A DNA stretch of 64,000 bases from Candidatus Binataceae bacterium (GTDB taxonomy: Bacteria > Desulfobacterota > Binatia > Binatales > Binataceae): NCBI GenBank assembly GCA_050736695.1, contig JBOHWH010000135.1, forward strand, positions 28,504 through 92,503, written 5' to 3'. The translations under genes were made by a program, and so were the position numbers. Within the stretch, counting starts at the first letter, position 1, and every line of letters begins with the position of its first letter. Below the pieces are notes generated by a model, which was not told the DNA's origin, searched no databases, and saw only the letters and a list, made by a program, of their open reading frames with translations. Positions 9,985-59,658 of the stretch are shown here, piece by piece.

Positions 9985-10067
9985 TTAGGAAAATGCGGAC
10001 TGTGGCCCGCCCTAGAATAGCTGTCCGACCCCCGACCCCAAGTCAAGCAAGACGCCCGCGCGCGGAC

Positions 10068-10096: not shown

Positions 10097-10109
10097 CCTG
10101 CTTCGCGAT

Positions 10110-10745: not shown

Positions 10746-10825
10746 CCTCGAAGGGGCCCGGCCTCGTCTCATTCGTTGAAGAGAGTCACAACTTGCCCGC
10801 GTGCAAGAGATCCTTCAGACGTGAA

Positions 10826-13635: not shown

Positions 13636-14180
13636 ACTCTCTTTTCGGCGCCGCGACCGGCGCGCTCCGCGGCATTCAGGAATTTTAGCTATTCTCGGGA
13701 TGGGAGCGTTACCCGATGGCGAAGAATCAGCCGAGAGACCATCGTACGTGCGCCAAGGATAGACGGTATAACGCGACCCCTCCACCCAAAGCATCGGCAA
13801 CGGCGTTCAGATCACCGGAGCGAAGCGGATGACAGCTTTAGGGTTCCCGATCAAACTCACGGGACGCGCGTTGGGCCACCGACAATGACGCAATCGGGGT
13901 CGGTAAGGTTCAGGCGGTTCTCCGATCACCTGGCGAGCTCGGAATGGACGCACACTATGGGGTCGACAGATGGTCAGGAAAGCTGACACTGCGCGGCGGC
14001 TTCTTACGTGGCGATCTGGTCTGCGGCGGCGAGGCGGCATCGTTGAACGGAAGAATCTTTCAGAGTCCATTCGAGCCAAACCGATGGTTCTTTTCCGGCG
14101 AATGGAAGGAAGGCGGAACGGTCTACTTCTTTTGGGCCGACCTCGAAGCGAAGCCACAATAGGTCTTTGGGACTCTGCGC

Positions 14181-14807
14181 ATGACAGTCGAGGAATACTT
14201 AGACATCCGAACAAAAGTAATGGCGCACCCCAACGGCCGCGCCGAGATTGAATGGCTGCGAAAGGCCGGCCGTCCGAAAGATTCCAACGATCTCGCGTTG
14301 CGGTTGGCGTCAGTGGTGACCTCGTCGGGTTTCGAATACCGTCCCGAGCTTTGGGAGCGCATCGGGTCGGCGTTGCGCCGCGGTCGACGAATCTTCCCTG
14401 ATGTGTTTGGAAACAAGAATAAGGCGGCGGCAATCGAAAAGATTTGGCGCGACCGACGTGCACTGTTCACGACGTTCAAAGCGATCCATACCCCGCAAGA
14501 GGCGCTCAAGTGGTGCGAGGGAATCCCGTATGTTCAGGGTCCGGTGTTGAGGTACCAAGCCGTACGCGACCTGGGTGTCGCCGATGTGGCGAAGCCAGAT
14601 CGGCATTTGGAGCGCATCGCTGAAAGGGCCGGTGAGTTCCTGAATGAACTAAGCAAACGGCTGGCGCGTTCAACGGGCGACAGCGTAGGAATGGTGGATA
14701 TGGTCCTCTGGAACGGCGCGCGCTTGCGGATAATTCCGGGCATCAGCCGTCGGCGTGGCCGTGTCGCAGATTGTCAGCCGCGCGCTCGCGCGTCCCGACG
14801 CCGATGA
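14181..14807 (+). CDS. Hypothetical protein (possible HhH-type DNA-binding segment)
   Basis: 208-aa ORF. The segment GIPYVQGPVLRYQAVRDLGVADVAKPDRHLERI loosely resembles a helix-hairpin-helix / HhH-GPD motif. No firm assignment. Confidence 0.3.
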   Translation: MTVEEYLDIRTKVMAHPNGRAEIEWLRKAGRPKDSNDLALRLASVVTSSGFEYRPELWERIGSALRRGRRIFPDVFGNKNKAAAIEKIWRDRRALFTTFKAIHTPQEALKWCEGIPYVQGPVLRYQAVRDLGVADVAKPDRHLERIAERAGEFLNELSKRLARSTGDSVGMVDMVLWNGARLRIIPGISRRRGRVADCQPRARASRRR

Positions 14808-15429
14808 AAAGATCCTACATAGCCGTGCGGCGGATAATTCTGATTCAAGTCACGTTTTTCTTAGGACAACCGAACGACTTTCCCTTTCTCCGCGGCGAGC
14901 GATTTGCGCCTGGGTCGCGGACGTTTCTCGGCCGATGAAGTGTCGCCCGGAGAACCGGTGACTGTCCATCTACCTGCCGAAAATCCGCGCTTAATCTGAT
15001 CCAGCGGAATATGAAGTTTATCAAGTACTCTTCAACGGATCACTCCCTCGTGCTTCAGTCCCAGACTCATTTGGGCGATTCTTTTTCGTATTCGGCGTAA
15101 TTTCCGTGCTTTAGACCTCACATGAAATTGGGACAGCGTTCGAGAGGCGTTTGCGTGCATCGCAACTTCGGTTGTGGGACAGAAAGGGCTTGGCGCGGAC
15201 GAGAAGTCCGACGGCGCCCAGCTACTATGATGCTGTGCGCTAGGCGCATTGCTAGACGAAGGAGTTTACCGGGACCGCCTCAAGACTCTCACCTGCACCC
15301 GCGATGTCTCGGGGATATGACCAAGAGTCAGGAATGGGGACGCAAATTGGTGTAGGATTCGTCTTCGCGGCCCAGTGCGCTCGCGGAGTGCTTCGGTGCC
15401 GGTTCGATGGCAGCCAGGTTGATGGCGGA

Positions 15430-17295
15430 ATGATGTCCCGACGCGACACGGAACCTGAACGCAAAACTCGCCTAATGCGAGTGGATCCGAAGCTTCACAT
15501 TCTGGGCTGGAAAATGGTCGCATTCAACCCCGATCTTGATTTATCCGCATGCACGGCACATGCGATTACTGAATACCCGACTGACGAAGGCCCGGCCGAT
15601 TACGCTTTGGCTCTCAACGGACGTATCGTCGGAATTATCGAGGCGAAAAAGCTCTCCCTCGGGCCCCAGAATGTCCTGACGCAGGCGGAGCGCTATGCCC
15701 GCAGCCTGCCGCCCAGCGAGTTAAATTTCAACGGCCTGCGCGCGCCGTTCCTGTACTCCACGAATGGCGAGGTGATCTGGTTTCATGACGTGCGCTCGCC
15801 TGCGAGTCGCTCGCGCCGCATCGCCAACTTTCACACGCCGGTCGCTCTGAGCGAGATGCTCGGGCGCGACTTCGAGGCCGAGTGCTATCGGCTGAGGGCG
15901 CTACCTAACATCCACAGCCTTCTGCGCCCCTATCAGCGAGAGGCCAACGCAGCGATCGAGCGAGGGATCGCGGAGCGGAAGCGCGTGATGCTCGTCGCGA
16001 TGGCGACCGGCACCGGCAAGACCTTTACGATGGTGAATCAGGTCTACCGGCTGATGAAATCGGGCGTCGGTCGCCGGATACTCTTCCTCGTCGATCGCCG
16101 GGCGCTGGCGGCGCAGGCGGTTCGCGAGTTTGCCTCGTTCGAGGCGGCGCCGGGCCTAAAGTTCGACAAGATTTACGAGGTTTACAGCCAGCGCTTCCAG
16201 AAAGACGATCTCGATCCCAGCGAGAAGTTCGATCCCAAGGTCATGCCCAACGCCTACCTCACGGATCCGAAGCCGGGAGCGGCGTTCGTTTACGTGAGCA
16301 CTATCCAGCGGATGGCGCGGTATCTGTTTCCCGACCGCAGCTTTGGGGAACGCGACGACGAGGACGAAAACGACCTGCCCGAGCCTCTGCCCATTCCAAT
16401 TCACGCCTTCGACCTGATCATCGCCGACGAATGCCACCGCGGCTACACCGCCGCCGAGCAGTCTCTGTGGCGCGACACGCTCGACCACTTCGATGCGATC
16501 AAAATCGGGCTTACCGCCACGCCCGCGCATCACACCACCGCCTACTTTCGCGACATCATTTACCGCTACGATTACCGCCGCGCCGTGGCCGAAGGCTTCC
16601 TGGTCGATTATGACGCCATCGCGATCAAGTCCGGCGTGCTGGTCAAGGGCATCTTCCTTAAAGAAGGCGATCGCGTGCAGACGGTTGATCCACAATCCGG
16701 CTTGACCGGCATGGACCAGCTCGAAGATCAGCGCCAATTCGACTCGACCGACGTCGAGCGCAAGATCACCGTTCCCGACACCAACAAAAAAATCGTCGAG
16801 GAACTGAAGAAGTACGCGCTGGCGCACGAGCAGAAGTTCGGGCGTTTCCCCAAAACGCTCATCTTTGCGGTCAACGACAAGCCGCACGTTTCACACGCCG
16901 ACCAGCTCGTTGATCTCTGCCGCGACATCTTCGCTCGAGGCGAAGCCTTCGTTGCCAAAATCACGGGGATCGTGGATCGCCCGTTGCAACGGATCCGCGA
17001 GTTCCGCAACCGTCCCGAGCCCGCGATCGTAGTGTCGGTGGACCTAATGTCCACCGGCGTGGACATTCCCAATCTTGAATTCATCGTGTTCGCGCGCCCC
17101 GTCAAGTCGCGCATCCTGTGGGAGCAGATGCTCGGCCGCGGTACCCGCCTCGGCAGCCTGACGCCGCCCAAGTCGCACTTCACGGTCTTCGATTGTTTCG
17201 ATGGCACGCTGTTCAATTACTTCAAGAACGCATCCGCCTTCACGGAAGGCGATTATGCCGTACTTGACTCCGACCCTCGCATGAGTTATATTTGA
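15430..17295 (+). CDS. hsdR: Type I restriction enzyme R subunit, N-terminal portion (HSDR_N PD-(D/E)xK nuclease + SF2 helicase motifs I-VI); gene apparently interrupted after motif VI
   Basis: The nuclease motif (ADYALALNGRIVGIIEAKK), Walker A (MATGTGKT), DECH box (LIIADECHRG) and motif VI (QMLGRGTRL) are all present. The ORF ends at 17295, immediately before the IS1595 transposase gene. The expected C-terminal domain is encoded separately at 20046-20972. Confidence 0.8.
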   Translation: MMSRRDTEPERKTRLMRVDPKLHILGWKMVAFNPDLDLSACTAHAITEYPTDEGPADYALALNGRIVGIIEAKKLSLGPQNVLTQAERYARSLPPSELNFNGLRAPFLYSTNGEVIWFHDVRSPASRSRRIANFHTPVALSEMLGRDFEAECYRLRALPNIHSLLRPYQREANAAIERGIAERKRVMLVAMATGTGKTFTMVNQVYRLMKSGVGRRILFLVDRRALAAQAVREFASFEAAPGLKFDKIYEVYSQRFQKDDLDPSEKFDPKVMPNAYLTDPKPGAAFVYVSTIQRMARYLFPDRSFGERDDEDENDLPEPLPIPIHAFDLIIADECHRGYTAAEQSLWRDTLDHFDAIKIGLTATPAHHTTAYFRDIIYRYDYRRAVAEGFLVDYDAIAIKSGVLVKGIFLKEGDRVQTVDPQSGLTGMDQLEDQRQFDSTDVERKITVPDTNKKIVEELKKYALAHEQKFGRFPKTLIFAVNDKPHVSHADQLVDLCRDIFARGEAFVAKITGIVDRPLQRIREFRNRPEPAIVVSVDLMSTGVDIPNLEFIVFARPVKSRILWEQMLGRGTRLGSLTPPKSHFTVFDCFDGTLFNYFKNASAFTEGDYAVLDSDPRMSYI

Positions 17296-17298
17296 TTC

Positions 17299-18225
17299 AT
17301 GCGAGAGAAGAAGCCCAAAGAGCCATTGGTTCCGCAACTTACCCTGAGTCAGTTCGCGGGCATGTTTCCCGATGAAGCCGCCTGCAAAGCCTATCTGGTC
17401 GCACGCCGCTGGCCGCAAGGCGTCCGTTGCCCGCGCTGCCAGAATGAGAAGGTGTACGAACTGAAAACCCGCCCCTTCCACTGGGTTTGCAAGAAGTGCG
17501 GCAAAACGCCTTATCGCTTCTCGGTCACGGTCGGAACCATCTTTGAGAATACCAATTACAAGTTGCTTGTTTGGTTCAAGGTTCTGCACCTGATGGTGAC
17601 CAGCAAGAAGGGAATCAGCGCGCTTCAAATCCATCGCATGATCGGTTCCGGTTCGTACCGTACCGCATGGTTCATGTGCCATCGGCTCCGCGCCGGTATG
17701 GCCGATCCCGAGTTTCGCCAGTTGATGGGCATCGTCGAAGTGGACGAAACCTATATCGGCGGCAAGGCTCAGAACATGCACCTCAACAAGCGCAAGGCGC
17801 TCGCGCTGACCGGAACCAAAGGTAAGGCGACCGTCATCGGCGCGATCTCCCGCAAGGGCAACGTGGTCTGCAAGGTGATCGAGAATACCGATCAGTTCAC
17901 GCTCGATAGGTTCGTTCGTAAAGCGGTCAATCAAGAGCGCGTCGATATGATCATGTCGGATGAGCACGGCGGTTATCGCCTGCTCGGCACTGGACCGCAG
18001 GCAATGCCGCACGGCGTCGTGCGCCACAGCGCGGGCGAATACGTTCACGGCATTGTGCATACGAATACGATCGAAGGATTCTGGAGCCTGCTCAAGCGGG
18101 GAATCATGGGCAGCTATCACAAAGTCAGCAAGAAATATCTGCCGCTCTACATCAACGAGTTTGTGTTCCGGTACAACAATCGCAAGAATCCGGACATCTT
18201 CGGGAGCGCGATAGCAGGATGCTGA
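17299..18225 (+). CDS. IS1595-family (ISXO2-like) transposase
   Basis: N-terminal transposase zinc-ribbon (CPRCQNEK...CKKCGK) followed by an ISXO2-like DDE domain (VDETYIGG...MSDEHGGY...HTNTIEGFWSLLKRG). Confidence 0.85.
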   Translation: MREKKPKEPLVPQLTLSQFAGMFPDEAACKAYLVARRWPQGVRCPRCQNEKVYELKTRPFHWVCKKCGKTPYRFSVTVGTIFENTNYKLLVWFKVLHLMVTSKKGISALQIHRMIGSGSYRTAWFMCHRLRAGMADPEFRQLMGIVEVDETYIGGKAQNMHLNKRKALALTGTKGKATVIGAISRKGNVVCKVIENTDQFTLDRFVRKAVNQERVDMIMSDEHGGYRLLGTGPQAMPHGVVRHSAGEYVHGIVHTNTIEGFWSLLKRGIMGSYHKVSKKYLPLYINEFVFRYNNRKNPDIFGSAIAGC

Positions 18226-18418
18226 AGCGACCAGACTGGCAGGCGCTTCAGCGGTCGCCAGCCAGTAGACCAACGCAACTCGACTTGTTTCCGAGAGTGC
18301 GGCGCTATGTCTAAACGAGAACCTCATGGTGTTTACGAGAACAAATAAACTAGGCGTACCAGAGCGACAATCCCGACAATGATTCCAAGCCATTGAAGCC
18401 AAGAAAGGTCACACACAA

Positions 18419-18739
18419 ATGATTCGATACTATCTTGCGGTATTCGCTCAGATAGCGAATCTAGTCGGCACTGCGACGATTTTTTTTGCACTGTCTTTTA
18501 CCTCTATCGGATTCCGCGCAGCGGTAGAGCCAACGCTCGGCAGAACCGAATTGTGCTTTGGTGGAGTGGCATTTATCGATTCCGTAGGCCATTTGATGAG
18601 CGCACCGTGCCCAGAGAACTCCACCGGCCAGATCGCGATCGTGAATAGCTTTCATCCAACAATGGCGCTTGTCGGTTTGGGGCTCGTTGTATTCGGTTCG
18701 TTATTTGCGCTTCTGACAATTCAAAAGCCGAAGGTGTAA
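18419..18739 (+). CDS. Hypothetical small membrane protein
   Basis: 106 aa with three hydrophobic segments, in the low-GC passenger region. Confidence 0.35.
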   Translation: MIRYYLAVFAQIANLVGTATIFFALSFTSIGFRAAVEPTLGRTELCFGGVAFIDSVGHLMSAPCPENSTGQIAIVNSFHPTMALVGLGLVVFGSLFALLTIQKPKV

Positions 18740-18743
18740 CGCG

Positions 18744-18887
18744 ATGTCCAAAGAAGGCGAAGCCAAAAAGAAAATTATTCACTTCTACTGTCGCCCGTGC
18801 GGCGAGTACCATCTGAAAACGCATCCGCACTATGCCGCGATGAAGCGGCGAGCCGAGCAGCGCAGGAAAGCCGAGAACGGACGATAA
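18744..18887 (+). CDS. Hypothetical 47-aa protein with CxxC..H...H pattern
   Basis: ATG...TAA ORF not in the ORF track (under 60 aa): MSKEGEAKKKIIHFYCRPCGEYHLKTHPHYAAMKRRAEQRRKAENGR, Lys/Arg-rich. Sits between two passenger genes. Confidence 0.25.
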   Translation: MSKEGEAKKKIIHFYCRPCGEYHLKTHPHYAAMKRRAEQRRKAENGR

Positions 18888-18891
18888 GGGT

Positions 18892-19293
18892 ATGCGAAAA
18901 TTTAACGCTGCGGTTTCGGCGCTCGCAATCGTGTTCGTCTTCGGGTGTTCGAGTCCGACCGATGACTTTGCCGTCGGTAAGACGTACCAGGTAGGTGCGG
19001 GCAAGCACGGATATGTGTGCGCCGGTGCGCCGCATCCGGATGATGCTGAGGTGGATCTAAGCGGAGCAAGCCTCAACCTTCTCAAAGGGCGAGAGTTCAT
19101 CACACAACCTGGGTGTGCAGGCCTGATAGAGTTTGATCGCATCAAAGTTATGGGCGTGAAAGATGACTATTTGGTGGTCGAGGTCGTTTGGGGGTACGAT
19201 CCCACTCGCGATGTGGACGCAACTGGATACGTCGGAATGATGGAGCCGGATTGTCTCGCGCCGGCCGCCCTTCCGGATTTTTCAAAGAAGTGA
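18892..19293 (+). CDS. Hypothetical lipoprotein
   Basis: Signal peptide with lipobox (LAIVFVFGCSS). Confidence 0.5.
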   Translation: MRKFNAAVSALAIVFVFGCSSPTDDFAVGKTYQVGAGKHGYVCAGAPHPDDAEVDLSGASLNLLKGREFITQPGCAGLIEFDRIKVMGVKDDYLVVEVVWGYDPTRDVDATGYVGMMEPDCLAPAALPDFSKK

Positions 19294-19986
19294 ATCAACG
19301 CATTCGGGGGCGCAGCGTCCCACGACCAATTCGCAGCTACCGGCTTGAACAGGAAACTTCAACGCAAGCGACCTGATTTCGTGTTTCAATCCTGCGCGTG
19401 TAAGCGCCCGCGAAAGTCGGCCAACGATCGAGGGCTGGGGACGCTCGCCGCCAATCCTGATAAGCAGACCGGATACATTAGGTGGGATGTCGGGATTGGT
19501 CATACCTCCGCCAAGGCCGAGCGACAGGAAAAGCCGTTGAAATTCCAGCGCGTAACGTCCAGCCTCGCTATCATAGGGATGGACGGCGATTGAAATATCT
19601 GTTTTTTCTTCGGCGGAAAGTGGGCGCAGCGATTCGTAAATTATCCGCCGTTGCTCTCTAGTGATTGTTCGTTGTTGATTACGATGTATTCCCCTTAGTT
19701 CGGTACGAAGCATCCCTATTTCCGCTTTCATTTCGGGCGACGCAGAGCCTTCGGTTCTCGAAAGGAAACTCGCTATCTTCTCATCCTTGAGTTTGTGGCG
19801 CTCTTCGTGAATGAGAAGTTGGCCGTCCCGCGTGGATATTTGGTGGCCGAAGGACCAAGACATCGCAAAATACATTACGATGCCAATGACGAGCAGCAAC
19901 CCGAAAAAGATAACAGGAGCCCCCGCGACCATCTTATACTCCTGCTCCCAATGTCCGACGACCCAACTCAAGATGGCCTCTTTCAT
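19282..19986 (-). CDS. Hypothetical membrane-anchored protein
   Basis: GGGAGA RBS before the internal ATG at 19986, an N-terminal TM segment, then a charged and coiled region. Confidence 0.4.
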   Translation of the reverse strand: MKEAILSWVVGHWEQEYKMVAGAPVIFFGLLLVIGIVMYFAMSWSFGHQISTRDGQLLIHEERHKLKDEKIASFLSRTEGSASPEMKAEIGMLRTELRGIHRNQQRTITREQRRIIYESLRPLSAEEKTDISIAVHPYDSEAGRYALEFQRLFLSLGLGGGMTNPDIPPNVSGLLIRIGGERPQPSIVGRLSRALTRAGLKHEIRSLALKFPVQAGSCELVVGRCAPECVDSLL

Positions 19987-48772: not shown

Positions 48773-50168
48773 CCGGCCTGTCGAGCGCCTGAACGGTTTG
48801 CGGGCGACCGATCGCGGACCAATATGCCGCCAGAAATCCGAGCATCATCACCACAAATCCGAGCTCGGCGACTGCGACAATCAGCACGGACGGTCCAAGC
48901 GGCAATCCGGCGTTGAACCGCGGCGTATCGGCGGCCCAAAAGCGCAGCCACAGCGCGCTCAGAAAAAAATTCGCGACCAACGCCCAGACCGCGAGCGCCG
49001 ATCCGCGTCCCTCGAGCGCGCACCACGCGATGGTCGCGAACGGAATCAGCAGCAGCGCCATGTAATGCGGCCATGCGATCGGTGAAAGCACGATCGCCGC
49101 CGCGATCCACAAACCGTAGGCTCGGAAATCGCGGTCAGGTTCCGTTTCGCGATGAGGAGTCGTCCGCCACACCAGCATCACTATCGCGAACGCGCAAACC
49201 AGCACCGCCAGGTGTCGCCCGAGTTCGAGCGCGGGGCTGAGCGGCGCGCCAAATGCGTACCAGAACATCCGCGAAACGAACGGAGCTAGCCCGAGGTTGA
49301 ACGCGAGGCTGCTCTGCCAGAACCCGGAATTCCACGCGATCATCCTGACCCAGCTAAAGCATCGCGCGACCCCGGTTATCGCGGCCGTCGCAAGCGCGCC
49401 CCCAACGCAAAACACAACCATCCAGAAGAGCGCCCGCCACTTGCGCCGCGCCAGCAGATAGCCACCCATCAGGAGCGGGAAGGCACGCAGCAGTCCGGCT
49501 AGCGCGAGTCCCGCGCCAGCCCCCACGTCGCCCCTCCGTCCGCGCCCGAGCGATCGCATCGCGAGCACCAGCAGAAACACCAGGACGATCTGCGTCTGTC
49601 CCCAGATGAACACCTGATCAATCGGCGAATACAGAAACGCCAGCGCCGCCAGGCTGAGCGCGGCGGCGCGCGACTCGGCGCCTGCCGGCGCAAGCAGCAT
49701 CCACAACGATGCGATCAGAAGCACGAAGTTCAGCGAGATCCAGACGGCATGCGCCAGTCGTGGTGAAAGCCGAGTCAACGGTTCGAAGCACAAAAGAAAC
49801 ACCGGCGTTTCGGCTGAGTGGATCATCGCGCCGGCGTCGAGGTTCAGTCTCGCGCTCATCTCCAGCAGATTGTCAGAATAGGGATTCATCCCGTCGCGCA
49901 TCGCGAGTGCCGAAACATAGTGACTGCTGAAATCGAGTAGCCGGTAGCGCGGCGCGACTTGCATGCTCAGCGTCGCCAGATGAAACATCGCGGCGACGAG
50001 CAGCATCCCCGCGACCGGCGCGCGTCTAAGCGCTATCGCAGTGCGCGGACCAATGCCCTGTCTTGGAGGATTTTCGTCGGACACGTGGGCGCGCTTGGGC
50101 ATCGCGGCTACACGCATAGCATGTTCGGCAGTCTGCTTAAACACATTATTTGACCATGCAGATCGCAA
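48744..50168 (-). CDS. Glycosyltransferase family 87 (DUF2029) integral-membrane mannosyltransferase-like protein
   Basis: Polytopic membrane protein with a GT87/DUF2029-like hydrophobic pattern (about 12 TM segments; the loops are Arg-, Trp- and Pro-rich). The start may be the internal M at 50117. Confidence 0.6.
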   Translation of the reverse strand: MRSAWSNNVFKQTAEHAMRVAAMPKRAHVSDENPPRQGIGPRTAIALRRAPVAGMLLVAAMFHLATLSMQVAPRYRLLDFSSHYVSALAMRDGMNPYSDNLLEMSARLNLDAGAMIHSAETPVFLLCFEPLTRLSPRLAHAVWISLNFVLLIASLWMLLAPAGAESRAAALSLAALAFLYSPIDQVFIWGQTQIVLVFLLVLAMRSLGRGRRGDVGAGAGLALAGLLRAFPLLMGGYLLARRKWRALFWMVVFCVGGALATAAITGVARCFSWVRMIAWNSGFWQSSLAFNLGLAPFVSRMFWYAFGAPLSPALELGRHLAVLVCAFAIVMLVWRTTPHRETEPDRDFRAYGLWIAAAIVLSPIAWPHYMALLLIPFATIAWCALEGRGSALAVWALVANFFLSALWLRFWAADTPRFNAGLPLGPSVLIVAVAELGFVVMMLGFLAAYWSAIGRPQTVQALDRPVRSSQPART

Positions 50169-50241
50169 CGTGCGTACTGCAAAGTGAACGACACGCGGCC
50201 CACGACGCCGAACAACTTTGCTCTATTGCTGACTATTGTGA

Positions 50242-50257
50242 TGGCACGGCGAGTGCT
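50242..50257 (+). promoter_or_regulatory. Candidate sigma54 (-24/-12) promoter upstream of kdpF: TGGCAC-N5-GTGC
   Basis: TGGCACggcgaGTGCT gives GG and GC at the canonical spacing of TGGCAC-N5-TTGCW. It lies about 93 nt upstream of the kdpF ATG. A sigma54-dependent regulator is encoded at the operon's 3' end. Confidence 0.45.
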
Positions 50258-50349
50258 CAGTATCGCTTCATGTACGACCTGCTCTGCGTGACCGGAACTA
50301 TCGCGTTTTTCATAGTCTGCTTCGCGTATGTCGCGGGATGCCAAAAGCT

Positions 50350-50442
50350 ATGAGCACCCTCGATCTCGTCATGGGCGCGACAATCGCCATCATTTTGTGC
50401 GTGTACCTGGTATACGCATTGATTAATCCTGAGCAGTTCTGA
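50350..50442 (+). CDS. kdpF: K+-transporting ATPase subunit F
   Basis: 30-aa hydrophobic peptide MSTLDLVMGATIAIILCVYLVYALINPEQF, with the KdpF signature (YL.YAL..PE.F), immediately upstream of kdpA. Absent from the ORF track (under 60 aa). Confidence 0.75.
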   Translation: MSTLDLVMGATIAIILCVYLVYALINPEQF

Positions 50443-50466
50443 ACTCCCTGCGACTGAGTAATCACG

Positions 50467-52194
50467 ATGCTTTTGAATGCGCTATTGCAAGTTGGTATTT
50501 TCTGCCTGCTCGTCCTGCTGCTGACGGTCCCCCTTGGAAGCTATATCAAGCGCGTCTTCTCGGACGAGCGGACTTTTCTCGATCCGATCCTCCGCCCGCT
50601 CGAGCGGCTCATCTACGGCTTTTGCCGAATCAGTCCCGCAACCGAAATGAGTTGGGCCGAATATGCGATCGCGATGCTGATGTTCAGCATGGCCGGGATG
50701 CTGCTGCTTTACGGGATCGAGCGGCTGCAAGAATTTCTGCCGCTCAATCCGCAAGCGTTCGGAGCGGTTGGCCCTTCGCTCGCGTTCAATACCGCCGCAA
50801 GCTTCACCACCAATACCAACTGGCAGGCCTACGGCGGCGAATCGACGATGAGCTATCTGACCCAGATGGCCGGGCTCGCGTTTCACAATTTCGTCTCGGC
50901 GGCCTCTGGAATCGCGGTAGCCATCGCGATAATCCGCGGGTTCGTCCGGAGGAGCGTGTGCACGCTCGGAAATTTCTGGTTCGATCTAACTCGCGCAACG
51001 CTATGGATTTTGCTCCCGCTCGCGAGCGTTCTCGCGCTCGCGTTGGTCTGGCAGGGCGTGCCTGAAAATTTCGAGCCTTATGTTCACGCGCGGACCGTCG
51101 AGGGCGCCGCGCAGATCATCGCCGAAGGGCCGGTTGCCTCGCAAGAGGCGATCAAGGTGCTCGGCACCAATGGGGGAGGATTCTTCAACGCCAACTCCGC
51201 GCATCCGTATGAGAACCCGACGCCGCTTTCAAACCTGCTCGAGATGCTCGCGATCTTCGCGATTGCAGCCGCATTGACTCATACCTTCGGCCTGATGGCG
51301 GGCGATCCGCGCCAGGGATGGGCGCTCTTCGCCGCGATGGCTCTGCTGTTCATCGTCGGCGCCAGCTCTGCGATTTGGGCCGAACAGGGCGGCAATCCGG
51401 AACTGGCCCGGCTCGGCGTCGATCAGCATGCGAGTGCGCTTCAATCGGGCGGCAACATGGAGGGTAAGGAAGTCCGGTTCGGAATCGTAAATTCCGCGCT
51501 GTGGGCTACCGTCACCACCGATACTTCGTGCGGCGCGGTCAACGCGATGCACGACAGTTTTACGCCGCTCGGCGGATTGGTTCCGCTGGTCAATATGCAA
51601 ATCGGTGAAATGATTTTCGGCGGCGTCGGCTCCGGACTGTACGGGATGCTGGTGATGGCGATCCTGTCGGTGTTTATCGCGGGGCTCATGGTCGGCCGCA
51701 CGCCCGAATACCTCGGCAAGAAGATCGAGTCGCGCGAAATGAAGCTCGCGATGTTCTACGTGTTGATCTTTCCGGCGGCCATTCTTCTGCCCGCGGCCGT
51801 CGCGATCGCCTCGAAAGCGGGACTGGCGGGAATTTCCAATCCCGGCCCACACGGGTTTTCGCAGATACTTTATGCATATACCGAAGGCGCGGCGAACAAT
51901 GGATCCGCATTTGCCGGACTAAACGCCAACACCGGCTTCTACAACATCACGATCGCACTTTCGATGCTGTTCGGCCGCTTCATGATGAAGATTCCCGCAC
52001 TCGCGATTGCCGGCTCGCTGGCCGGCAAACGAGTCGTGCCGCAAAGCGCGGGCACCTTTCCCACCACGGGCGCGGTCTTCGTCGTACTGCTGGTCGGCGT
52101 GATCCTGATCGTCGCCGCGCTCACCTTTTTCCCGGCCGATGCGCTCGGACCGATCGTCGAACACCTGGCGATGTCGGCCGGCAAACTCTACTAA
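50467..52194 (+). CDS. kdpA: K+-transporting ATPase subunit A
   Basis: 575 aa, polytopic, with KdpA selectivity-filter-like motifs ([19 protein letters not shown]). Confidence 0.9.
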
Positions 52195-52218
52195 GCCGCG
52201 CCGCTGACTAACGGAGGA

Positions 52219-54270
52219 ATGCTTCCGATGACTGAACGAAAAGCGCCCGTCCTCTGGGACCGCGCCATCGTCGGGCGCGCCCTGATTGATTCCTGCCGCA
52301 AGCTCGATCCGCGCGTCCAGTTGCGCAATCCGGTGATGTTCGTGGTCGAAGTCACCGCGCTCGCGGTTACAATTATCCTCGTGCGCGACTGGTTCGCCGC
52401 GCACGGTTCGTTGGTCAAGTTCGAATTGCAAATCGCGCTGTGGCTGTGGTTCACCGTGCTATTCGCAAACTTTGCAGAGGCGATGGCGGAAGGACGCGGC
52501 AAGGCGCAGGCCGACAATCTGCGCAAGACCCGCACTGAGACTTTCGCCAAACTGGTCGGCCCCGGCGGTGCGATAGCGGCCGTGCCCGCGACCAACCTGC
52601 GGCGCGGCGACGTAGTGCTGGTCGAGGCGGGCGACGTGATTCCCGGCGACGGCGAGGTGATCGAGGGCGTCGCCGCCGTGAACGAGGCCGCGATCACCGG
52701 CGAATCCGCGCCGGTCATCCGTGAAAGCGGTGGCGACCGCAGCGCTGTCACCGGCGGCACCACGGTGATTTCGGATTTCATCAAGGTCAAGATCACCGCG
52801 AACCCCGGCGAGACTTTTCTTGACCGCATGATCGGGCTGGTCGAAGGCGCGCAACGTCAGAAGACGCCCAACGAGATCGCGCTCAGCATCCTGCTCTCGG
52901 GCCTGACCGTGATTTTTCTGCTCGTGTGCGTGACACTTTACCCGTTCGCGCTGTATGGCGGGATCGCGCTGTCCCTGCCGGTGATCGTCGCGCTGCTGGT
53001 ATGCCTGATTCCGACCACGATCGGCGCACTGCTTTCCGCGATCGGAATTGCCGGGATGGATCGCCTGGTTCAGCACAGCGTGCTCGCGATGTCCGGGCGC
53101 GCGGTCGAGGCGGCCGGCGATGTGGACACTCTGCTGCTCGACAAGACCGGAACGATCACCTTGGGCAACCGGATGGCCACTGAATTCCTGCCCGTTCCTG
53201 GCGTCACGGCCGCGGAACTGGCCGAGGCGGCTCAACTCGCGTCGCTGGCCGACGAAACTCCCGAAGGCCGCTCAATCACCGTTCTCGCAAAGCGGGAATT
53301 CAATTTGCGCGGACACGATTTAGCGGAACGCAACGCGCGCTTCATCGCGTTCTCGGCACAAACCCGGATGAGCGGCGTCGATATCGGCGACCGCACGATC
53401 CGCAAGGGCGCCAGCGAGCAGGTGCTCGATTTCGCGCGCCAAAATGGCGGCGCGGTACCAGCCGAAATGACCGAGATCGTCGAGCGGATCGCCAAGGCGG
53501 GTGGAACTCCGCTTGCGGTCGCGGATCGCGGACGCGTGCTCGGCGTCATTCACCTGAAGGATGTCGTCAAGGACGGAATCCGCGAACGCTTCGAGCGGTT
53601 GCGCGCGATGGGCCTGCGCACCGTGATGATCACCGGCGACAATCCTTTGACCGCCGCCGCGATCGCGCGGGAGGCCGGGGTTGACGATTTTCGCGCGGAG
53701 GCCACCCCCGAGACCAAGCTGCGTTTGATTCGCGAGGAGCAGGCACAGGGCAAGCTGGTCGCGATGATCGGCGACGGCACCAACGATGCGCCCGCGCTCG
53801 CGCAGGCCGACGTGGGAGTCGCGATGAACGCGGGCACTCAGGCCGCGCGCGAAGCCGGCAATATGATCGATCTCGATTCAAATCCGACCAAGATCATGGA
53901 GGTGGTCGAGATCGGCAAGCAACTGCTGATCACGCGCGGCGCGCTGACCACCTTTTCGATCGCCAACGACGTGGCGAAGTATTTCGCGATTATTCCCGCG
54001 ATGTTCGTGCTCGGATATCCTCAGCTCCAGGCGCTCAACGTGATGCATCTGTCCACGCCGCAGAGCGCGATTCTTTCCGCGGTCATATTCAACGCGTTGA
54101 TCATTATCGCGCTGATTCCTCTGGCGCTGCGCGGAGTGGCCTATCGGCCTGTCGGCGCCGCCGCGATTCTGACCCGCAATCTGCTGATCTATGGCCTCGG
54201 CGGCGTGATCATTCCGTTCATCGGAATCAAGGCGATCGACATGATCGTCGCCGGGCTGCATCTGGCGTGA
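52219..54270 (+). CDS. kdpB: K+-transporting P-type ATPase subunit B
   Basis: DKTGTIT phosphorylation motif, TGDN, and the hinge [16 protein letters not shown]. 683 aa. Confidence 0.9.
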
Positions 54271-54278
54271 GGTGATTC

Positions 54279-54869
54279 ATGATCCGCGATCAAATCAAGC
54301 CCGCGATAATTATGACGATCGTCCTGACCGTGTTGACCGGGTTCATTTATCCCGTCGTTGTCTGGGCGATCGCTCAAGTCGCATTTCCAACCCAGGCCGG
54401 CGGCAGTATCGTGATGCGCGGCGGCCGTCCGATCGGCTCGACGCTGATTGGCCAGAACTTTTCCGCCGACAAGTATTTTCATCCACGCCCGTCCGCCGCC
54501 GGCGACAAGGGTTACGCCCCGACGAGTTCCGGCGGCTCGAATCTTGGTCCCACCAACAAGGCGCTGATCGACGCGGTGCGCGGCCGCGTTGCCGAAGTAT
54601 CGAAGCAGGATAGTCCGATTGCGCCGGAGGGCGTTCCCGCTGATCTTGTGACGGCATCCGGCAGCGGCCTCGACCCTGAAATCACTCCGGCGGGCGCAGC
54701 GCTTCAGGTGCCTCGAGTCGCCCGCGCCCGGGGAATCGCAGAGGATGCGGTTCGCGCGCTCGTGAGTCAGAATACTCGTCAGAGGTGGGCGGGGGTGCTG
54801 GGCGAGCCGGGGGTTAATGTCCTGGAACTGAATCTTGCTCTCGATAGTCTATCGAAGGCCAAGCGATGA
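54279..54869 (+). CDS. kdpC: K+-transporting ATPase subunit C
   Basis: 196 aa with an N-terminal TM helix and KdpC-conserved segments (SGSGLDPEITPAGAALQVPRVARARG). Confidence 0.9.
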   Translation: MIRDQIKPAIIMTIVLTVLTGFIYPVVVWAIAQVAFPTQAGGSIVMRGGRPIGSTLIGQNFSADKYFHPRPSAAGDKGYAPTSSGGSNLGPTNKALIDAVRGRVAEVSKQDSPIAPEGVPADLVTASGSGLDPEITPAGAALQVPRVARARGIAEDAVRALVSQNTRQRWAGVLGEPGVNVLELNLALDSLSKAKR

Positions 54870-54905
54870 ACCGCATGGCGCGAACCGAACAGTTGAGCAC
54901 TAGAA

Positions 54906-56081
54906 GTGGAGCGCTCGCGTAACATCAAGGACGCGGAACGACCCGATCCGGAGTCGTTCCTGGACCTGGTTGCGCGATCGCAAAAGGGCCGCCTGAAGGT
55001 CTATCTTGGCGCCGCGGCGGGCGTCGGCAAGACCTGGAAGATGCTCGAAGAAGCGCACCAGTTGCGCGCGAAGGAAGTCGATGTCGTCGTCGGTCTGGTC
55101 GAGACTCATCACCGCGCCGAAACCGAAGAGAAGCTCGCCGGTCTCGAAATCGTCCCGCGCAAAAAGTATCCGTACAAAGGCGTCGAGTTGGAGGACTTGG
55201 ATCTCGACGCGGTCCTCGCGCGCAATCCGGAAGTCGCGATCATTGACGAGTTGGCGCATACCAACGCGGCCGGCGCCAAGCATGAAAAGCGCTGGCAGGA
55301 TGTCGAAGAGCTGATGCACCGCGGTATCAATGTGATCACCGCGGTCAATATCCAGCACCTCGAAAGCCTCAATCCCGTCATTAGGCGCATCACTGGAATC
55401 GAGGTGCGCGAGACCGTGCCTGACTCGATCCTCACCCGTGCCGATCAGGTGGTTAACGTTGACGTTACGGTCGAGTCGCTGCGCGAGCGCCTGCGCGAAG
55501 GAAAGATTTATCCCGGGCCGCAGATCGAGCAGGCGCTGCGAAATTTCTTCACTCCGGGCAATCTGGCGTCGCTGCGCGAGATGGCGCTGCGCGAGGTCGC
55601 ACGCGGACTGACCCGCCAGCGCCGGGACGCCGAGAACCTCAAGCGCGAGGGCGGGCATCGGACGCGAGTCGTGGAGAAGCTCATGGTCGGGCTATCCTCG
55701 AACCCTCGCGACGGTGGGAAACTTCTGCGCAAAGCGTGCCGGGTCGCCACGCAACTGAGCGCCGACTGGTACGCGGTGCATATCGAGACGCCGGCCGAAT
55801 CGGTCAAGAAGATCCGCACCGGCGATTTCGTCACGCTGCTCGACAACATCAACCTCGCGAGCGATCTCGGCGCCGAAACGGTGTGGCTTAAGGCGCCCGA
55901 CCCGGTCAAGGGGATGCTCGATTACGCGCGCGACAATGGAATTTCAAAAATCATCGTTGGCCGATCGCATCAGCCGCGATGGCGTCGCGCGTTGCGCCGC
56001 GATGTCGCCGCCCGGATCATTGCGAGCGCGCCCGACATCGACGTCGAAATTCTGGCCGATGAACCCGGTGAGGAAAAATGA
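54906..56081 (+). CDS. kdpD: KdpD sensor-domain-only protein (KdpD N-terminal domain + Usp domain, no TM/kinase part)
   Basis: RLKVYLGAAAGVGKTWKMLEEA (KdpD N-terminal P-loop) followed by a Usp-like domain. It stops at 391 aa with no histidine-kinase portion. Confidence 0.85.
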   Translation: MERSRNIKDAERPDPESFLDLVARSQKGRLKVYLGAAAGVGKTWKMLEEAHQLRAKEVDVVVGLVETHHRAETEEKLAGLEIVPRKKYPYKGVELEDLDLDAVLARNPEVAIIDELAHTNAAGAKHEKRWQDVEELMHRGINVITAVNIQHLESLNPVIRRITGIEVRETVPDSILTRADQVVNVDVTVESLRERLREGKIYPGPQIEQALRNFFTPGNLASLREMALREVARGLTRQRRDAENLKREGGHRTRVVEKLMVGLSSNPRDGGKLLRKACRVATQLSADWYAVHIETPAESVKKIRTGDFVTLLDNINLASDLGAETVWLKAPDPVKGMLDYARDNGISKIIVGRSHQPRWRRALRRDVAARIIASAPDIDVEILADEPGEEK

Positions 56082-57865
56082 GTACGCCTTCACTTCGGCG
56101 GCGGATTCGTAACGGCACCCTGCTGCTGCTGGTGCTGGTCGTGCTACTCGGCGCGTTCACCCTTCCGCGCGTATACAGGCTGGGCGGCGCGATTCGCCAG
56201 ACGCTGTACCGCAACTACGTCAGTATCGATGCCGCGCAGCATATGCACATGGCGCTCGCGAACCTCGAGCTGGCCGAGCGCGACGGCCGCGCGAAGGATG
56301 CGCTGCCGGCGGCGCGCGCTGAATTTATGCTCCGGATGGACACCGAGGATCACGACTACACCGAGGCTGGCGAGCCGGAGCTCGCGCACGCGATTAGGTC
56401 GGACGCCGATCGGTTGTTCAGCGATATCGCCGCGGCTCCTCCCGGCGCGCGCCACGACGCGGAGTTCACCGCGCTGCACGCGCGTCTTGACGATCTGATC
56501 GCGATGAATCAGGCAGCGATGTTCCGGGCCGACAGCCGTTCCGCCGAGCTTGGGCGGCGGCTCACCTATCAATTCGCCGCGAGCCTTGCGCTGGTGCTGA
56601 TCTTCGGCGCCGCGATCTCGTGGGGGCTCGGATGGTCGCTGTCGCAGCCGCTGATCGAAGTTGCCGAACGCCTGCGCGGCGTCGGCCAGCGTCGCGGGCA
56701 GGTGCGGCTCGGGCCGCAAAAGTTCGCCGAGCTTGACGCGGTCGCGCGCGAGTTCAACCAGATGGCGGAGCGGCTCGAACGATTCGAAAAACTCAACGTC
56801 GATCGGCTGGTCTATGAAAAGAGCAAGACCGAGGCGATTATCGAAAGCCTCGAAGACGGCGTGGTCCTGATCGATTCCGAAGGAAGGGTCGCGCATATCA
56901 ACGAGATCGCCGCCTTGATCATGGGCGTCGAGCCGAAGGACGCGCTCGGCAGCCCATTCGAGGATCTGAGCAGCAATCATCCGCACTATCTGCGCGTGCG
57001 CGACGCACTGCATAATCTGCGCAAGGCCGGCCCTTTAAGCCAGCGAATCGAAGTCCAGTTGCACGTGCGCGGCCGCGACCACACCTACGTTCTTAAGCCC
57101 ATGCCGCTGCATCACGACGAGGGCGCCCCACTCGGCACCCTGCTGATTCTGCAGGACGTGACTTATCTGCGCGATCAGGATCGCGCGCGAGCCAACCTGA
57201 TCGCTACTCTGTCGCACGAGTTGCGTACTCCGCTGACCTCGCTCGCGCTATCGGCCGAGTTGCTCCGCCGTGACGGCGCGGCGCTTGATTCCAAGCAGCG
57301 AGAGTTGCTGGAAGCGATCCTCGAGGAATGCGCGCGCATGAAGGCGCTCAGCGGCAGCCTGCTCAATCTCGCGCGCGGCGAGCTCGCCTCAATCTCGGTG
57401 CAGCGCGAACGTCTGGACCTGCGCCAGATTATCGAAGAAGTCGTCCGCCGCTTCGCACTGCAAGCCGAAGAGAAGCATGTGAAACTGACCGGGCTGCTTG
57501 AACCTGTTCCTGAAATCTCAGGCGATGCGGTAAAGCTCTCGTGGGTGGTCTCGAACCTGATCGGCAACGCTCTGCGCTACACGCCCGAAGGCGGACAGAT
57601 AGAGGTGGCGGCTCGCCCAGTCGATTCGAAAGTGCGGCTCGAGGTCTCTGACTCAGGCCCGGGCATCCCATCCGAGATTCGCGAACACATCTTCGAACGG
57701 TTCGCGCAATATGGGCGCGGCGGAGTCGAAAACGGTTCCGCGGGACTGGGCCTGGCGATCGCAAAAGACATCGTCGCCGCGCATGGCGGCCGGATCTTTG
57801 TCGATAGCAACGCGGGCGTGGGCAGCCGCTTTGTGGTCGAACTGCCGGCCGGAGGAAATCTCTGA
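56078..57865 (+). CDS. Sensor histidine kinase (N-terminal TM and HAMP, PAS, HisKA, HATPase_c)
   Basis: H-box ATLSHELRTPLTSL, N-box SNLIGNALRYT, G-boxes SDSGPGIP and GLGLAIAKDIV. Overlaps the kdpD-N stop and the response-regulator start. Confidence 0.85.
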   Translation: MSTPSLRRRIRNGTLLLLVLVVLLGAFTLPRVYRLGGAIRQTLYRNYVSIDAAQHMHMALANLELAERDGRAKDALPAARAEFMLRMDTEDHDYTEAGEPELAHAIRSDADRLFSDIAAAPPGARHDAEFTALHARLDDLIAMNQAAMFRADSRSAELGRRLTYQFAASLALVLIFGAAISWGLGWSLSQPLIEVAERLRGVGQRRGQVRLGPQKFAELDAVAREFNQMAERLERFEKLNVDRLVYEKSKTEAIIESLEDGVVLIDSEGRVAHINEIAALIMGVEPKDALGSPFEDLSSNHPHYLRVRDALHNLRKAGPLSQRIEVQLHVRGRDHTYVLKPMPLHHDEGAPLGTLLILQDVTYLRDQDRARANLIATLSHELRTPLTSLALSAELLRRDGAALDSKQRELLEAILEECARMKALSGSLLNLARGELASISVQRERLDLRQIIEEVVRRFALQAEEKHVKLTGLLEPVPEISGDAVKLSWVVSNLIGNALRYTPEGGQIEVAARPVDSKVRLEVSDSGPGIPSEIREHIFERFAQYGRGGVENGSAGLGLAIAKDIVAAHGGRIFVDSNAGVGSRFVVELPAGGNL

Positions 57866-59211
57866 TGGCATCGCTGCTGATCGTTGACGACGAAAAAAAT
57901 ATCCGCCGCGGCCTCGTCTCATTCTTCGAGTCGCTCGGTTACTCCGTCGCAGCCGCCGAGAACGGCAAGGAAGCGGCCGCGATGCTTTCGAACCGTACGT
58001 TTGATCTGGTTCTGACCGACTTCCGGATGGCCGAGATGAATGGTCTCGAACTGGTCGGCGAGGTGTGCAGCCGCCAGCCCGACTGCCCGATCATCCTGAT
58101 GACCGCGTACGCAACCGTCGAGAACGCCGTAGCCGTGATGAAAGCCGGGGCGTACGACTACGTTACCAAGCCGTTCTCACTCGAGCAGATCCGGCACATC
58201 GTCGAGCGCGCACTCGAGCTGCGCGGTTTGCAGGCCGAGAATCGCGCACTGCGCGATACGATCGATGAGGCGCCGCTGCTCGAATCGAAGAGCGCCGTGA
58301 TGACGCATCAGCTCAAACTCGCGCGCCAGGCCGCCGCAAGCGACGCGACTATCCTGCTGACCGGCGAAAGCGGGACCGGCAAGAATGTGCTCGCCCGCCA
58401 GATGCATCGCTGGAGCCTGCGAAAAGACGGGCCGTTCGTGGTGATCAACTGCACCACCCTCTCCGACGAGCTGCTCGAAAGCGAATTGTTCGGACATATG
58501 CGCGGCTCGTTCACTGGAGCGGTGAAGGACAAGCCCGGACGGCTCGAAGCGGCCGACAAAGGCTCGGTGTTTCTCGACGAGATCGCCGATCTGACGCCAA
58601 CGCTACAAACCAAATTCCTGCGCTTCGTGCAGGAGCAGAGTTTCGAACGCGTCGGCGGCGACAAGACGATTCGCGTCAACGCGCGGATCATCGCCGCCTC
58701 CAATCGCGATCTCGAAGCCGAGGTCGCGGGCCGTCGCTTCCGCGAGGATCTTTTCTATCGCCTCAACGTCATCACGATTCGAGTTCCCGCCCTGCGCGAG
58801 CGGCGCGAGGACGTGCCCGCGCTGGCGCAGTGGATGCTCCAGGCGGCGGCGATCCGGCATCACCGGCCTGCGATGCGGCTGGCTCCGGAAGCGGCTGCGG
58901 CAATCTCAAAATATAGATGGCCGGGCAATGTACGCGAGCTGCGCAATGCGCTCGAACGCGCGGCCGTGCTCTCCCGCAGCGACGAAATCACCCGCGAGGA
59001 TTTACCCGATTCGATTTTTCGGGAAAACGCTGAGCCCGCGTCGGGCGGCGCGCAATCTCCAGGCCCGCATTCTCCAAGCCTCGAAGATCTCGAACGCGAG
59101 CATATCCGCCGCGTGCTCGCCGAAAGCGCAACTCTGGAAGAAGCGGCAGCCGCGCTCGGGATCAACGTCACCACGCTATGGCGCAAGCGCAAACGCTACG
59201 GCATCGAATGA
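57865..59211 (+). CDS. Sigma54-dependent Fis-family response regulator (NtrC-like: REC + AAA+ + HTH)
   Basis: REC domain (LIVDDE...D at LVLTDFRM), AAA+ Walker A GESGTGKN, GAFTGA-like ESELFGHMRGSFTGA, and a C-terminal Fis-type HTH. Confidence 0.9.
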   Translation: MASLLIVDDEKNIRRGLVSFFESLGYSVAAAENGKEAAAMLSNRTFDLVLTDFRMAEMNGLELVGEVCSRQPDCPIILMTAYATVENAVAVMKAGAYDYVTKPFSLEQIRHIVERALELRGLQAENRALRDTIDEAPLLESKSAVMTHQLKLARQAAASDATILLTGESGTGKNVLARQMHRWSLRKDGPFVVINCTTLSDELLESELFGHMRGSFTGAVKDKPGRLEAADKGSVFLDEIADLTPTLQTKFLRFVQEQSFERVGGDKTIRVNARIIAASNRDLEAEVAGRRFREDLFYRLNVITIRVPALRERREDVPALAQWMLQAAAIRHHRPAMRLAPEAAAAISKYRWPGNVRELRNALERAAVLSRSDEITREDLPDSIFRENAEPASGGAQSPGPHSPSLEDLEREHIRRVLAESATLEEAAAALGINVTTLWRKRKRYGIE

Positions 59212-59229
59212 ACGCGGGCGTGGGTCGCG

Positions 59230-59658
59230 CTAGCGGATATAATAGCCGGACACGCGCCACTGTCCGTCTTTTTCCAGCATCGGCGTAACGATCTCTTTCG
59301 CCGCGCGGCGTCCGGCAAAATCCGTAGCATAAACCACGACCACGTATTTTCCCGGGGGAGCGCTTGGAAGCGAGGTCGCGTAGGTAGCAGATTCAAATTT
59401 ACGTGAGGTGACCGCGCCGAGCGGCTTGCGCACCGCATCCATCGCACTGGCGAATTGATCGGCGGTTGCCGCGGCTTTTACCGGCGCCGCAGCCTGCCGC
59501 CATGCCTGCGCGTACTGGCCCGCATCGATTTCGTGCAGCCATCCGAGCGCGACCGTTTGCGCGGCCGCTTCGTCGGCTTTCTCGTCAGCTCGAACCCCGG
59601 CCGCAAGCGCGACGACCAGACACGCCGCGATGACCCCGTATCGAATTGCACGCGTCAT
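59230..59658 (-). CDS. DUF4019-family secreted protein
   Basis: Signal peptide, and a C-terminus ...MLEKDGQWRVSGYYIR typical of DUF4019. Confidence 0.55.
   Translation of the reverse strand: MTRAIRYGVIAACLVVALAAGVRADEKADEAAAQTVALGWLHEIDAGQYAQAWRQAAAPVKAAATADQFASAMDAVRKPLGAVTSRKFESATYATSLPSAPPGKYVVVVYATDFAGRRAAKEIVTPMLEKDGQWRVSGYYIR

Follow-up and report, generated by a model that had tools for sequence, protein, structure and literature searches.

We describe here a kdp operon, encoding the high-affinity K+ pump, in a 64,000-nucleotide (nt) stretch of DNA (the window) from a Candidatus Binataceae bacterium (GenBank assembly GCA_050736695.1, contig JBOHWH010000135.1, positions 28,504–92,503 of the forward strand), a member of an abundant uncultured soil lineage. 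The operon, which spans 50156–59276 of the window (all coordinates below are window positions), is preceded by a conserved sigma-54 promoter and ends in the gene of its own presumed NtrC-type activator. We consider it likely that this is a self-contained, autoregulated unit in which K+ uptake is controlled at two levels, transcription and pump activity. Its seven genes, kdpF, kdpA, kdpB, kdpC, a stand-alone KdpD N-terminal domain/Usp gene (KdpD-N), a histidine kinase gene and the activator gene, are tightly packed on the plus strand, the last three being joined by ATGA and TGATG overlaps. An earlier note on this DNA had proposed that the usual KdpD/KdpE pair is replaced by a 391-amino-acid (aa) KdpD-N/Usp protein, an overlapping PAS-HisKA kinase and an overlapping NtrC-type activator; Pfam searches of the window proteins, from which our domain calls derive, recovered every gene element that it had listed and agree with this replacement.

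The operon is real and well conserved, and the observation, now confirmed, is statistically and phylogenetically solid. A genome scan with the KdpD-N protein as query returned 28 loci, the closest of which (59–90% identity) are metagenome-assembled genomes (MAGs) of Candidatus Binataceae or of 'uncultured delta proteobacterium'. By tblastn on these loci, the order kdpA-B-C, KdpD-N, kinase, activator recurs in 19 of them. Sixteen related loci included DNA upstream of kdpA and were used for the promoter comparison, in which 17 Binataceae sequences were anchored on the promoter element.

The predicted -24/-12 promoter, TGGCACGGCGAGTGCT, lies on the plus strand at 50242–50257, 93 nt before the kdpF ATG at 50350, where the earlier note had pointed to a match to the sigma-54 consensus. 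The pattern TGGCAC-N6-TGCW has this single match in the 64 kb, both strands included, with 0.08 expected. A strict form, TGGCA[CT]-N5-NTGC[ATC], was found in 11 of the 16 related loci at -223 to -238 from the kdpA ATG (-225 in the window), and the five more distant Binataceae loci carry [GC]GGCA[CT]-N5-NTGC[TAG] at the same place. Across all 17 Binataceae loci the GGCA and TGC blocks are invariant and exactly spaced, while at the five spacer bases and over the 25 nt on each side the commonest base is present in just 5–13 of 17. Because the core is identical in every locus while the spacer and flanks vary, TGGCACGGCGAGTGCT goes beyond a chance match; a conserved core with a drifting spacer is how a functional -24/-12 promoter should look, whereas neutral sequence should not show it. 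The element would place the transcription start at 50268–50270, and the operon would then depend on sigma-54 in vivo. Three loci that are more distant and differ in gene order, L019, L021 and L030, have similar -24/-12 elements too. A sequence scan of 49900–50500 for a sigma-70 promoter gave no sigma-70-like candidate. An Rfam scan of 50000–50600 gave no riboswitch or leader RNA, including no cyclic di-AMP (c-di-AMP; ydaO-type) riboswitch.

The conservation extends upstream of the promoter. In a MAFFT alignment of the 17 Binataceae loci, with conservation counted column by column, a conserved block lies 55–85 nt upstream of the promoter GG, and the roughly 50 nt between block and promoter are unconserved. 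Within this block are two degenerate TTGCA-N3-TGCAA dyads on the plus strand, putative activator sites A (ATGCAGATCGCAA, 50156–50168, about -112 to -100 from the predicted start) and B (CTGCAAAGTGAAC, 50177–50189). Their centres are 21 bp apart, that is, two helical turns, and the pair occupies about -112 to -79. The invariant or near-invariant columns are T50157-G-C-A, G50165-C-A, G50170, G50179-C-A, T50185-G and A50188-A. Site A has T50157, G50165 and A50167 in every locus and keeps the adjacent core bases in 14–16 of the 17 loci; in site B, G50179, C50180, T50185 and G50186 are invariant (17/17) and A50181 and A50188 are present in 16/17. The composite two-dyad pattern occurs once in the window, with none expected, and within the loci it is found solely at kdp promoters.

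The ideal form of the dyad is clear because Desulfobaccales relatives show it: a perfect TTGCA-N3-TGCAA palindrome, with a 5-3-5 layout, lies upstream of the promoter in Desulfobaccales loci. In L030 the dyad CTTGCATTTTGCAATC precedes the -24/-12 element CGGCATAAGGGTTGCAT, in L019 TTGCATCCTGCAA precedes GGGCATCAGGGTTGCAT, and in L021 TTGCAATTTGCA precedes TTGGCATGATTCTGGCT. The earlier note had suggested a search for inverted repeats upstream of the promoter. In the form of a generic inverted-repeat search this found nothing in 50100–50270, as the dyads are too short and too degenerate for it; they became visible through the alignment, which did bear the suggestion out with two conserved dyads. 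Thus what began as a candidate promoter stands as a conserved promoter with conserved activator sites upstream.

The last two genes of the operon encode its predicted regulators of transcription. The histidine kinase (56078–57865, plus strand, 595 aa) has, from its translation, Pfam matches and AlphaFold model, a first transmembrane segment, a periplasmic four-helix bundle, a second transmembrane segment, a weak HAMP match, and PAS, HisKA and HATPase domains; its ATG overlaps the stop codon of the preceding KdpD-N gene (ATGA). The two transmembrane segments (about residues 13–29 and 165–187) enclose a periplasmic stretch of about 135 residues, and the H box (H380) and the N and G boxes are present. 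The HAMP match scores 18.4 bits, below the curated Pfam cut-off of 25, and it was the single match in residues 1–253 at E values up to 10; no DUF4118 or GAF domain was detected in the kinase with Pfam. In an AlphaFold model built with 39 homologues the sensor is a four-helix bundle, with a mean predicted local distance difference test (pLDDT) score above 90 in blocks 51–90 and 101–140 and of 80–88 in blocks 41–50 and 91–100. A PDB sequence search with kinase residues 1–230 found no relative of the sensor domain. Metagenomes contain a great many homologues of the kinase, and those of the Desulfobaccales match Pfam 4HB_MCP_1.

The activator (57865–59211, plus strand, 448 aa) overlaps the kinase gene by 1 nt and is an NtrC-family enhancer-binding protein (EBP) of REC-Sigma54_activat-HTH_8 architecture (Pfam Sigma54_activat, E 1e-64, with Response_reg, AAA_lid_14 and HTH_8); it is the sole EBP in the 64-kb window. 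Its motifs are intact: the phosphoacceptor position D52, Walker A (GESGTGK, 167–173), GSFTGA (214–219), Walker B (VFLDEI, 235–240) and the HTH_8 domain. The GSFTGA variant is also found in Desulfovibrio vulgaris NtrC, DVU3220 (PMC4641369). Over its full length, including the HTH region, the activator is 47% identical to the kdp-linked EBP of the Desulfobaccales locus L030. What characterizes a canonical KdpD/KdpE pair is missing from these proteins by Pfam, in that the KdpD-N/Usp protein ends at 391 aa, the kinase carries neither DUF4118 nor GAF, and the activator has no Trans_reg_C domain; nor is there a canonical KdpD-C/KdpE pair near the operon in the Binataceae loci.

The layout of this kinase and activator recalls KinB/AlgB of Pseudomonas aeruginosa. 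Both kinases have two transmembrane segments, a helical periplasmic sensor, HAMP (below the Pfam cut-off here), PAS, HisKA and HATPase, each has an NtrC-family partner regulator of about 450 aa, and the modelled sensor superposes, as a weak match, on that of KinB, which binds phosphate; KinB, like the window kinase, is 595 aa long. The two systems differ in that the PDB search detected no sequence similarity between the sensor domains, and in that the target here is kdp, not alginate or virulence genes. We therefore did not file the pair as KinB/AlgB: the architecture is alike, and orthology is unsupported.

The wiring of the operon is not new, and the earlier note was right that it has been described for few lineages. 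When Rajeev and colleagues (2011) mapped D. vulgaris response regulators by DNA-affinity-purification chip (DAP-chip), DVU3334 was found to bind its own kdpFABC/KdpD-N/kinase operon at GTTACAtttTGTAAC, and the kinase was described as being in two parts, DVU3336, with a K+ sensor domain and UspA, and DVU3335 (PMC3333781). The ortholog-based DVU3334 motif, CGTTACATTTTGTAACGG, lies 149 nt upstream of kdpF and overlaps a motif for DVU3305, GTTGCAnnnTGCAAC; both motifs are 5-3-5 dyads built like the sites of the window. Related sites and orthologues were reported in D. vulgaris Miyazaki and in Syntrophobacter fumaroxidans, whose DVU3334 orthologue is 46% identical as given by Rajeev et al. (PMC3333781), a value close to the 47% between the window and L030 activators. 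In the sigma-54 regulome of Kazakov and colleagues (2015), DVU3334 appears as an EBP whose regulon, DVU3339.1-DVU3337, is labelled 'Potassium uptake' (PMC4641369). The D. vulgaris Hildenborough genes DVU3339.1-DVU3334 (kdpFABC, KdpD-N/Usp DVU3336, PAS kinase DVU3335, regulator DVU3334) are in the same order as those of the window, and in both cases the sigma-54 activator is encoded in the operon that carries its upstream sites, with a 5-3-5 dyad about 100–150 nt upstream (GTTACAtttTGTAAC there, TTGCA-N3-TGCAA-like here). There are differences, however: Desulfovibrionales and Binataceae are phylum-level separate lineages; the half-sites are one base apart, that of the window being nearer the DVU3305 motif; one dyad was reported in D. 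vulgaris, in contrast to the two 21 bp apart found here; and the D. vulgaris activator has GAFTGA in place of GSFTGA. The operon of the window is thus a further example of a described type, in a different lineage, and control of kdp by sigma-54 and an NtrC-type activator is well supported, by inference together with published precedent. Such control of the high-affinity K+ pump, so far the preserve of a few sulfate reducers, is thereby extended to the Binataceae and Desulfobaccales, and the phylogenetic footprint of promoter and activator sites could be used for annotation; in principle, our understanding of Kdp regulation is unchanged.

Relative to the E. coli KdpD/KdpE system, the pump is the same (KdpB, E 1e-273), the regulator genes likewise follow the pump genes in one operon, and the KdpD N-terminal domain shares 46% identity and every serine-kinase residue. 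E. coli, however, has the fused transmembrane/GAF/DHp-CA half of KdpD and the OmpR-type KdpE, neither of which is present here, and a sigma-70 promoter with a proximal activator, whereas the window has a sigma-54 promoter with a remote one. The kinase of the window also differs in having a large periplasmic sensor domain.

Where our reading parts from the earlier note is in the role of the KdpD-N/Usp protein (54906–56081, plus strand, 391 aa; Pfam KdpD, E 2e-93, plus Usp). It is soluble and stands alone: Pfam matched KdpD and Usp alone, with no kinase domain, and reading the sequence gives no membrane segment. The earlier note had it sense in trans for the kinase. The KdpD N-terminal domain is, however, an atypical serine kinase, with Walker A G-X5-GKT, W39, Walker B D109/E110 and R190 (Silberberg, 2024; PMC11018627), which phosphorylates KdpB on Ser162 and so inhibits the pump at high K+ (PMC11018627). 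Aligned with residues 7–377 of E. coli KdpD, the window protein shows 46% identity, its residues 26–233 match PDB 2r8r, and its Walker A G35-X5-G41K42T43, W44, Walker B D114/E115 and R195 align with E. coli G30–T38, W39, D109/E110 and R190. The target is conserved as well: in the window KdpB the regulatory E162-S163 of the A domain lies in ITGESAPV, a motif identical to that of E. coli around Ser162. Because the catalytic residues and the Glu-Ser target on KdpB are both conserved, and given the findings of Silberberg (2024), we read the 391-aa protein as a post-translational off-switch for the pump rather than a sensor that serves the kinase; it is a probable stand-alone atypical serine kinase, predicted to act on KdpB. 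Its likely role is thereby corrected to that of a pump-inhibiting serine kinase, although it may in addition make a secondary, modulating contact with the histidine kinase.

Such short KdpD/Usp proteins have precedents. They keep the serine-kinase role only, and that of Deinococcus geothermalis is activated by c-di-AMP; Anabaena and Alicyclobacillus use a separate two-component system for transcription, and in species that do so the serine-kinase chain stays downstream of the pump genes (PMC11018627). The arrangement here is like theirs in its short chain directly after the pump genes, its retained catalytic motifs and its unrelated two-component system for transcription, and differs in that the separate system appears to be sigma-54-dependent and lies in the same operon.

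Gene order in the Desulfobaccales is informative on this point. In L030/L031 it is activator, sigma-54 promoter, four-helix-bundle kinase, small open reading frame (ORF), kdpFABC and KdpD-N, so that KdpD-N remains downstream of kdpC where the kinase and activator have moved. It follows from this order that KdpD-N keeps company with the pump genes rather than with the kinase, and that kdp has in the sigma-54 module a mobile regulatory add-on. The L030/L031 region (7493–19439) holds two regulatory systems side by side: besides the sigma-54 activator and four-helix-bundle kinase upstream of the pump genes there is, downstream and on the opposite strand, an OmpR-type regulator with a DUF4118-GAF-HisKA kinase that corresponds to the C-terminal half of KdpD. 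In L021, at about 480–675, the -24/-12-like TTGGCATGATTCTGGCT is separated from the kinase gene by an ORF of about 60 codons that includes a hydrophobic stretch.

Taken together, the parts would work as follows. The membrane kinase would respond to a signal that is presumably K+ limitation or turgor, detected by its periplasmic four-helix bundle, its PAS domain or both, and would phosphorylate the activator on D52. The activator would assemble on the two dyads (50156–50189) and use ATP to open the sigma-54 holoenzyme at the promoter (50242–50257). The resulting transcript would begin at or 1–2 nt before the ATG of a 27-codon ORF described below, cover kdpFABC, kdpD-N and the kinase and activator genes, and end at a hairpin at 59247. 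As the regulators would be co-transcribed with the pump, induction would amplify them too; that the system is autoregulated is suggested by its single promoter and tightly packed genes, three of whose junctions overlap. Once K+ was sufficient again, the KdpD-N/Usp protein would phosphorylate KdpB on Ser163 (Ser162 in E. coli) and shut the pump off, its Usp domain perhaps taking the input signal for the serine kinase.

Several observations weigh against this reading. Single TTGCA-N3-TGCAA sites with up to two mismatches are not enriched in the window (13 vs 22 expected), so that what speaks for the sites is their conservation, pairing and position. Site B departs from the ideal dyad at three bases. 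Foldseek matches of the sensor model are weak (E of at least 0.03), and are to a NarQ sensor-transmembrane-HAMP fragment and to the KinB sensor 4llc_B. The NCBIfam model 'KdpD-like non-kinase potassium sensor' does match the KdpD-N/Usp protein, at 373 bits, below its cut-off of 550. In the Usp region, the SxS...FTAxY c-di-AMP motif of S. aureus KdpD is not obvious. To these may be added that TGGCACGGCGAGTGCT departs once from the TGGCAC-N5-TTGCW consensus, with G for T before TGC (GTGCT vs TTGCW). Were the -24/-12 match fortuitous on this account, transcription would have to come from a sigma-70-type promoter that escaped recognition, and the activator would have another gene as its target. 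With 0.08 matches expected per window, a core that is invariant in 17/17 loci and recurs in L019, L021 and L030 despite their different gene order, no sigma-70-like site found, and the D. vulgaris precedent, we regard this as extremely improbable.

The KdpD-N/Usp protein could instead be a K+ sensor that acts in trans on the PAS kinase and so sets the phosphorylation of the activator, the two being cooperating halves of a split KdpD. The ATGA overlap between the kdpD-N stop and the kinase start suggests coupled translation and a fixed stoichiometry, and Rajeev et al. do call DVU3336/DVU3335 one kinase 'split into two ORFs' (PMC3333781). Nonetheless the kinase does not represent the KdpD C-terminal half: it lacks DUF4118 and GAF and, being a membrane protein, has a periplasmic four-helix-bundle sensor of its own. 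The known K+-sensing sites of KdpD are in its transmembrane/GAF part and not in the N-terminal domain, which has a demonstrated enzymatic role on KdpB (PMC11018627) and whose catalytic residues are intact here. In the Desulfobaccales, moreover, the kinase and activator are encoded ahead of the pump, yet KdpD-N still follows kdpC. A trans-acting sensor therefore seems unlikely to us. Somewhat more credible, although still on the improbable side, is that the kinase and activator answer a signal other than K+ (envelope, osmotic or anion), kdp being one output of a broader stress circuit and K+ acting on pump activity only. The automated JGI label 'KinB' on kinase homologues of the Binataceae and Desulfobaccales groups, which denotes a resemblance only, points this way, such signals having been suggested for KinB-type sensors, as does the superposition on the P. 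aeruginosa KinB sensor (TM-score 0.75 normalised to the target, root-mean-square deviation 2.7 Å over 118 columns, 19% identity, weak E of 0.06). In D. vulgaris, DVU0596 and the general-stress regulator DVU3305 likewise bind at the kdp promoter (PMC3333781), the dyad here is nearer in sequence to the DVU3305 motif GTTGCAnnnTGCAAC, and the Desulfobaccales loci additionally carry the KdpD-C/OmpR-type pair. On the other hand, the kinase and activator genes are inside or beside the kdp operon in every locus examined, the composite dyad pattern is confined to the kdp promoter in the sequences examined, and the Binataceae loci show no canonical KdpD-C/KdpE nearby. We favour a kinase that would respond to K+ limitation or turgor and would pass phosphate to the activator of its own operon.

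The most novel by-product of this analysis is the small ORF before kdpF. In the window it is a hydrophobic ORF of 27 codons (MYDLLCVTGTIAFFIVCFAYVAGCQKL, 50270–50353, plus strand) whose stop overlaps the kdpF ATG (ATGA). It has 27 codons in all 17 Binataceae loci, where its median dN/dS is 0.23 in frame vs 1.2 and 1.6 in the other two frames; by this measure, the small ORF in the Binataceae is under purifying selection. Similar peptides (M-x-D..FF..AYV..C-x-[KR]-L) precede kdpF in loci of the Desulfobaccales, Chloroflexota and Dormibacterota, and homologues are found in Azospirillum ramasamyi ('hypothetical protein'), Mycetohabitans rhizoxinica ('potassium ABC transporter ATPase') and D. radiodurans pMP1 (unannotated). 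A hydrophobic ORF of 27–34 aa thus directly precedes, and usually overlaps, kdpF in Binataceae, Desulfobaccales, Chloroflexota, Dormibacterota, Alpha- and Betaproteobacteria and Deinococcus; in individual loci it lies at 2273–2371 (L019), 10868–10966 (L030), 393–518 (L034), 439–543 (L036) and about 430–510 (L032). It matches no Pfam or NCBIfam family, and an exact look-up of 10 of the peptides in a large protein collection found three, either nameless or labelled 'hypothetical protein'.

In the Binataceae the ATG of this ORF follows the C of the -12 GC at a distance of 13–14 nt, and almost every base immediately in front of the ATG is a pyrimidine. At this distance the transcript would start at or 1–2 nt before the ATG, so the sigma-54 mRNA is probably leaderless in the Binataceae; the Desulfobaccales ORF, which is internal, has a Shine-Dalgarno sequence. 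We put forward tentatively, as a possibility worth following more than as a settled view, that the small ORF, conserved in at least six phyla and for the most part unannotated, encodes an uncharacterised small membrane component of Kdp or serves as a translational coupling device, and is carried in the Binataceae at the head of a leaderless sigma-54 transcript. If true, every induced Binataceae kdp transcript begins with this peptide, which would be a cheap target for structural or small-protein work on Kdp.

The pump genes themselves are all on the plus strand: kdpF (50350–50442, with an alternative start at 50338; 30 aa; Pfam Potass_KdpF, E 2e-08; TIGR02115, 35.4 bits vs a cut-off of 26.85), kdpA (50467–52194; Pfam KdpA, E 6e-247), kdpB for the P-type ATPase subunit (52219–54270; E 1e-273 to E. 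coli KdpB 6hra_B; catalytic D308) and kdpC (54279–54869; Pfam KdpC, E 3e-74). A terminator-like hairpin, CGGACACGCGCCACTGTCCG, followed by a T-run (59247–59276, plus strand), may close the operon; it was called by a consensus scan, in which terminator-like sites in the region were no more numerous than in shuffles. The operon is flanked upstream by a divergent GT87 glycosyltransferase gene and downstream by a convergent DUF4019 gene. The hairpin (59247–59266) has T-rich tails on both strands and also scores on the minus strand for the DUF4019 gene, inside the 3′ end of whose ORF as listed (59230–59658, minus strand) it sits.

Two loci differ in their gene content. In L013, an 'uncultured delta proteobacterium' MAG, a KdpD-N homologue that is 63% identical (7001–8149) had no match to kdpABC, the kinase or the activator within 7 kb on either side, and is possibly a lone copy that does not accompany a pump operon. 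In L032 (D. radiodurans pMP1, 590–2981), kdpA is directly followed by a gene annotated as kdpC, without kdpB between them, an order different from that of the window.

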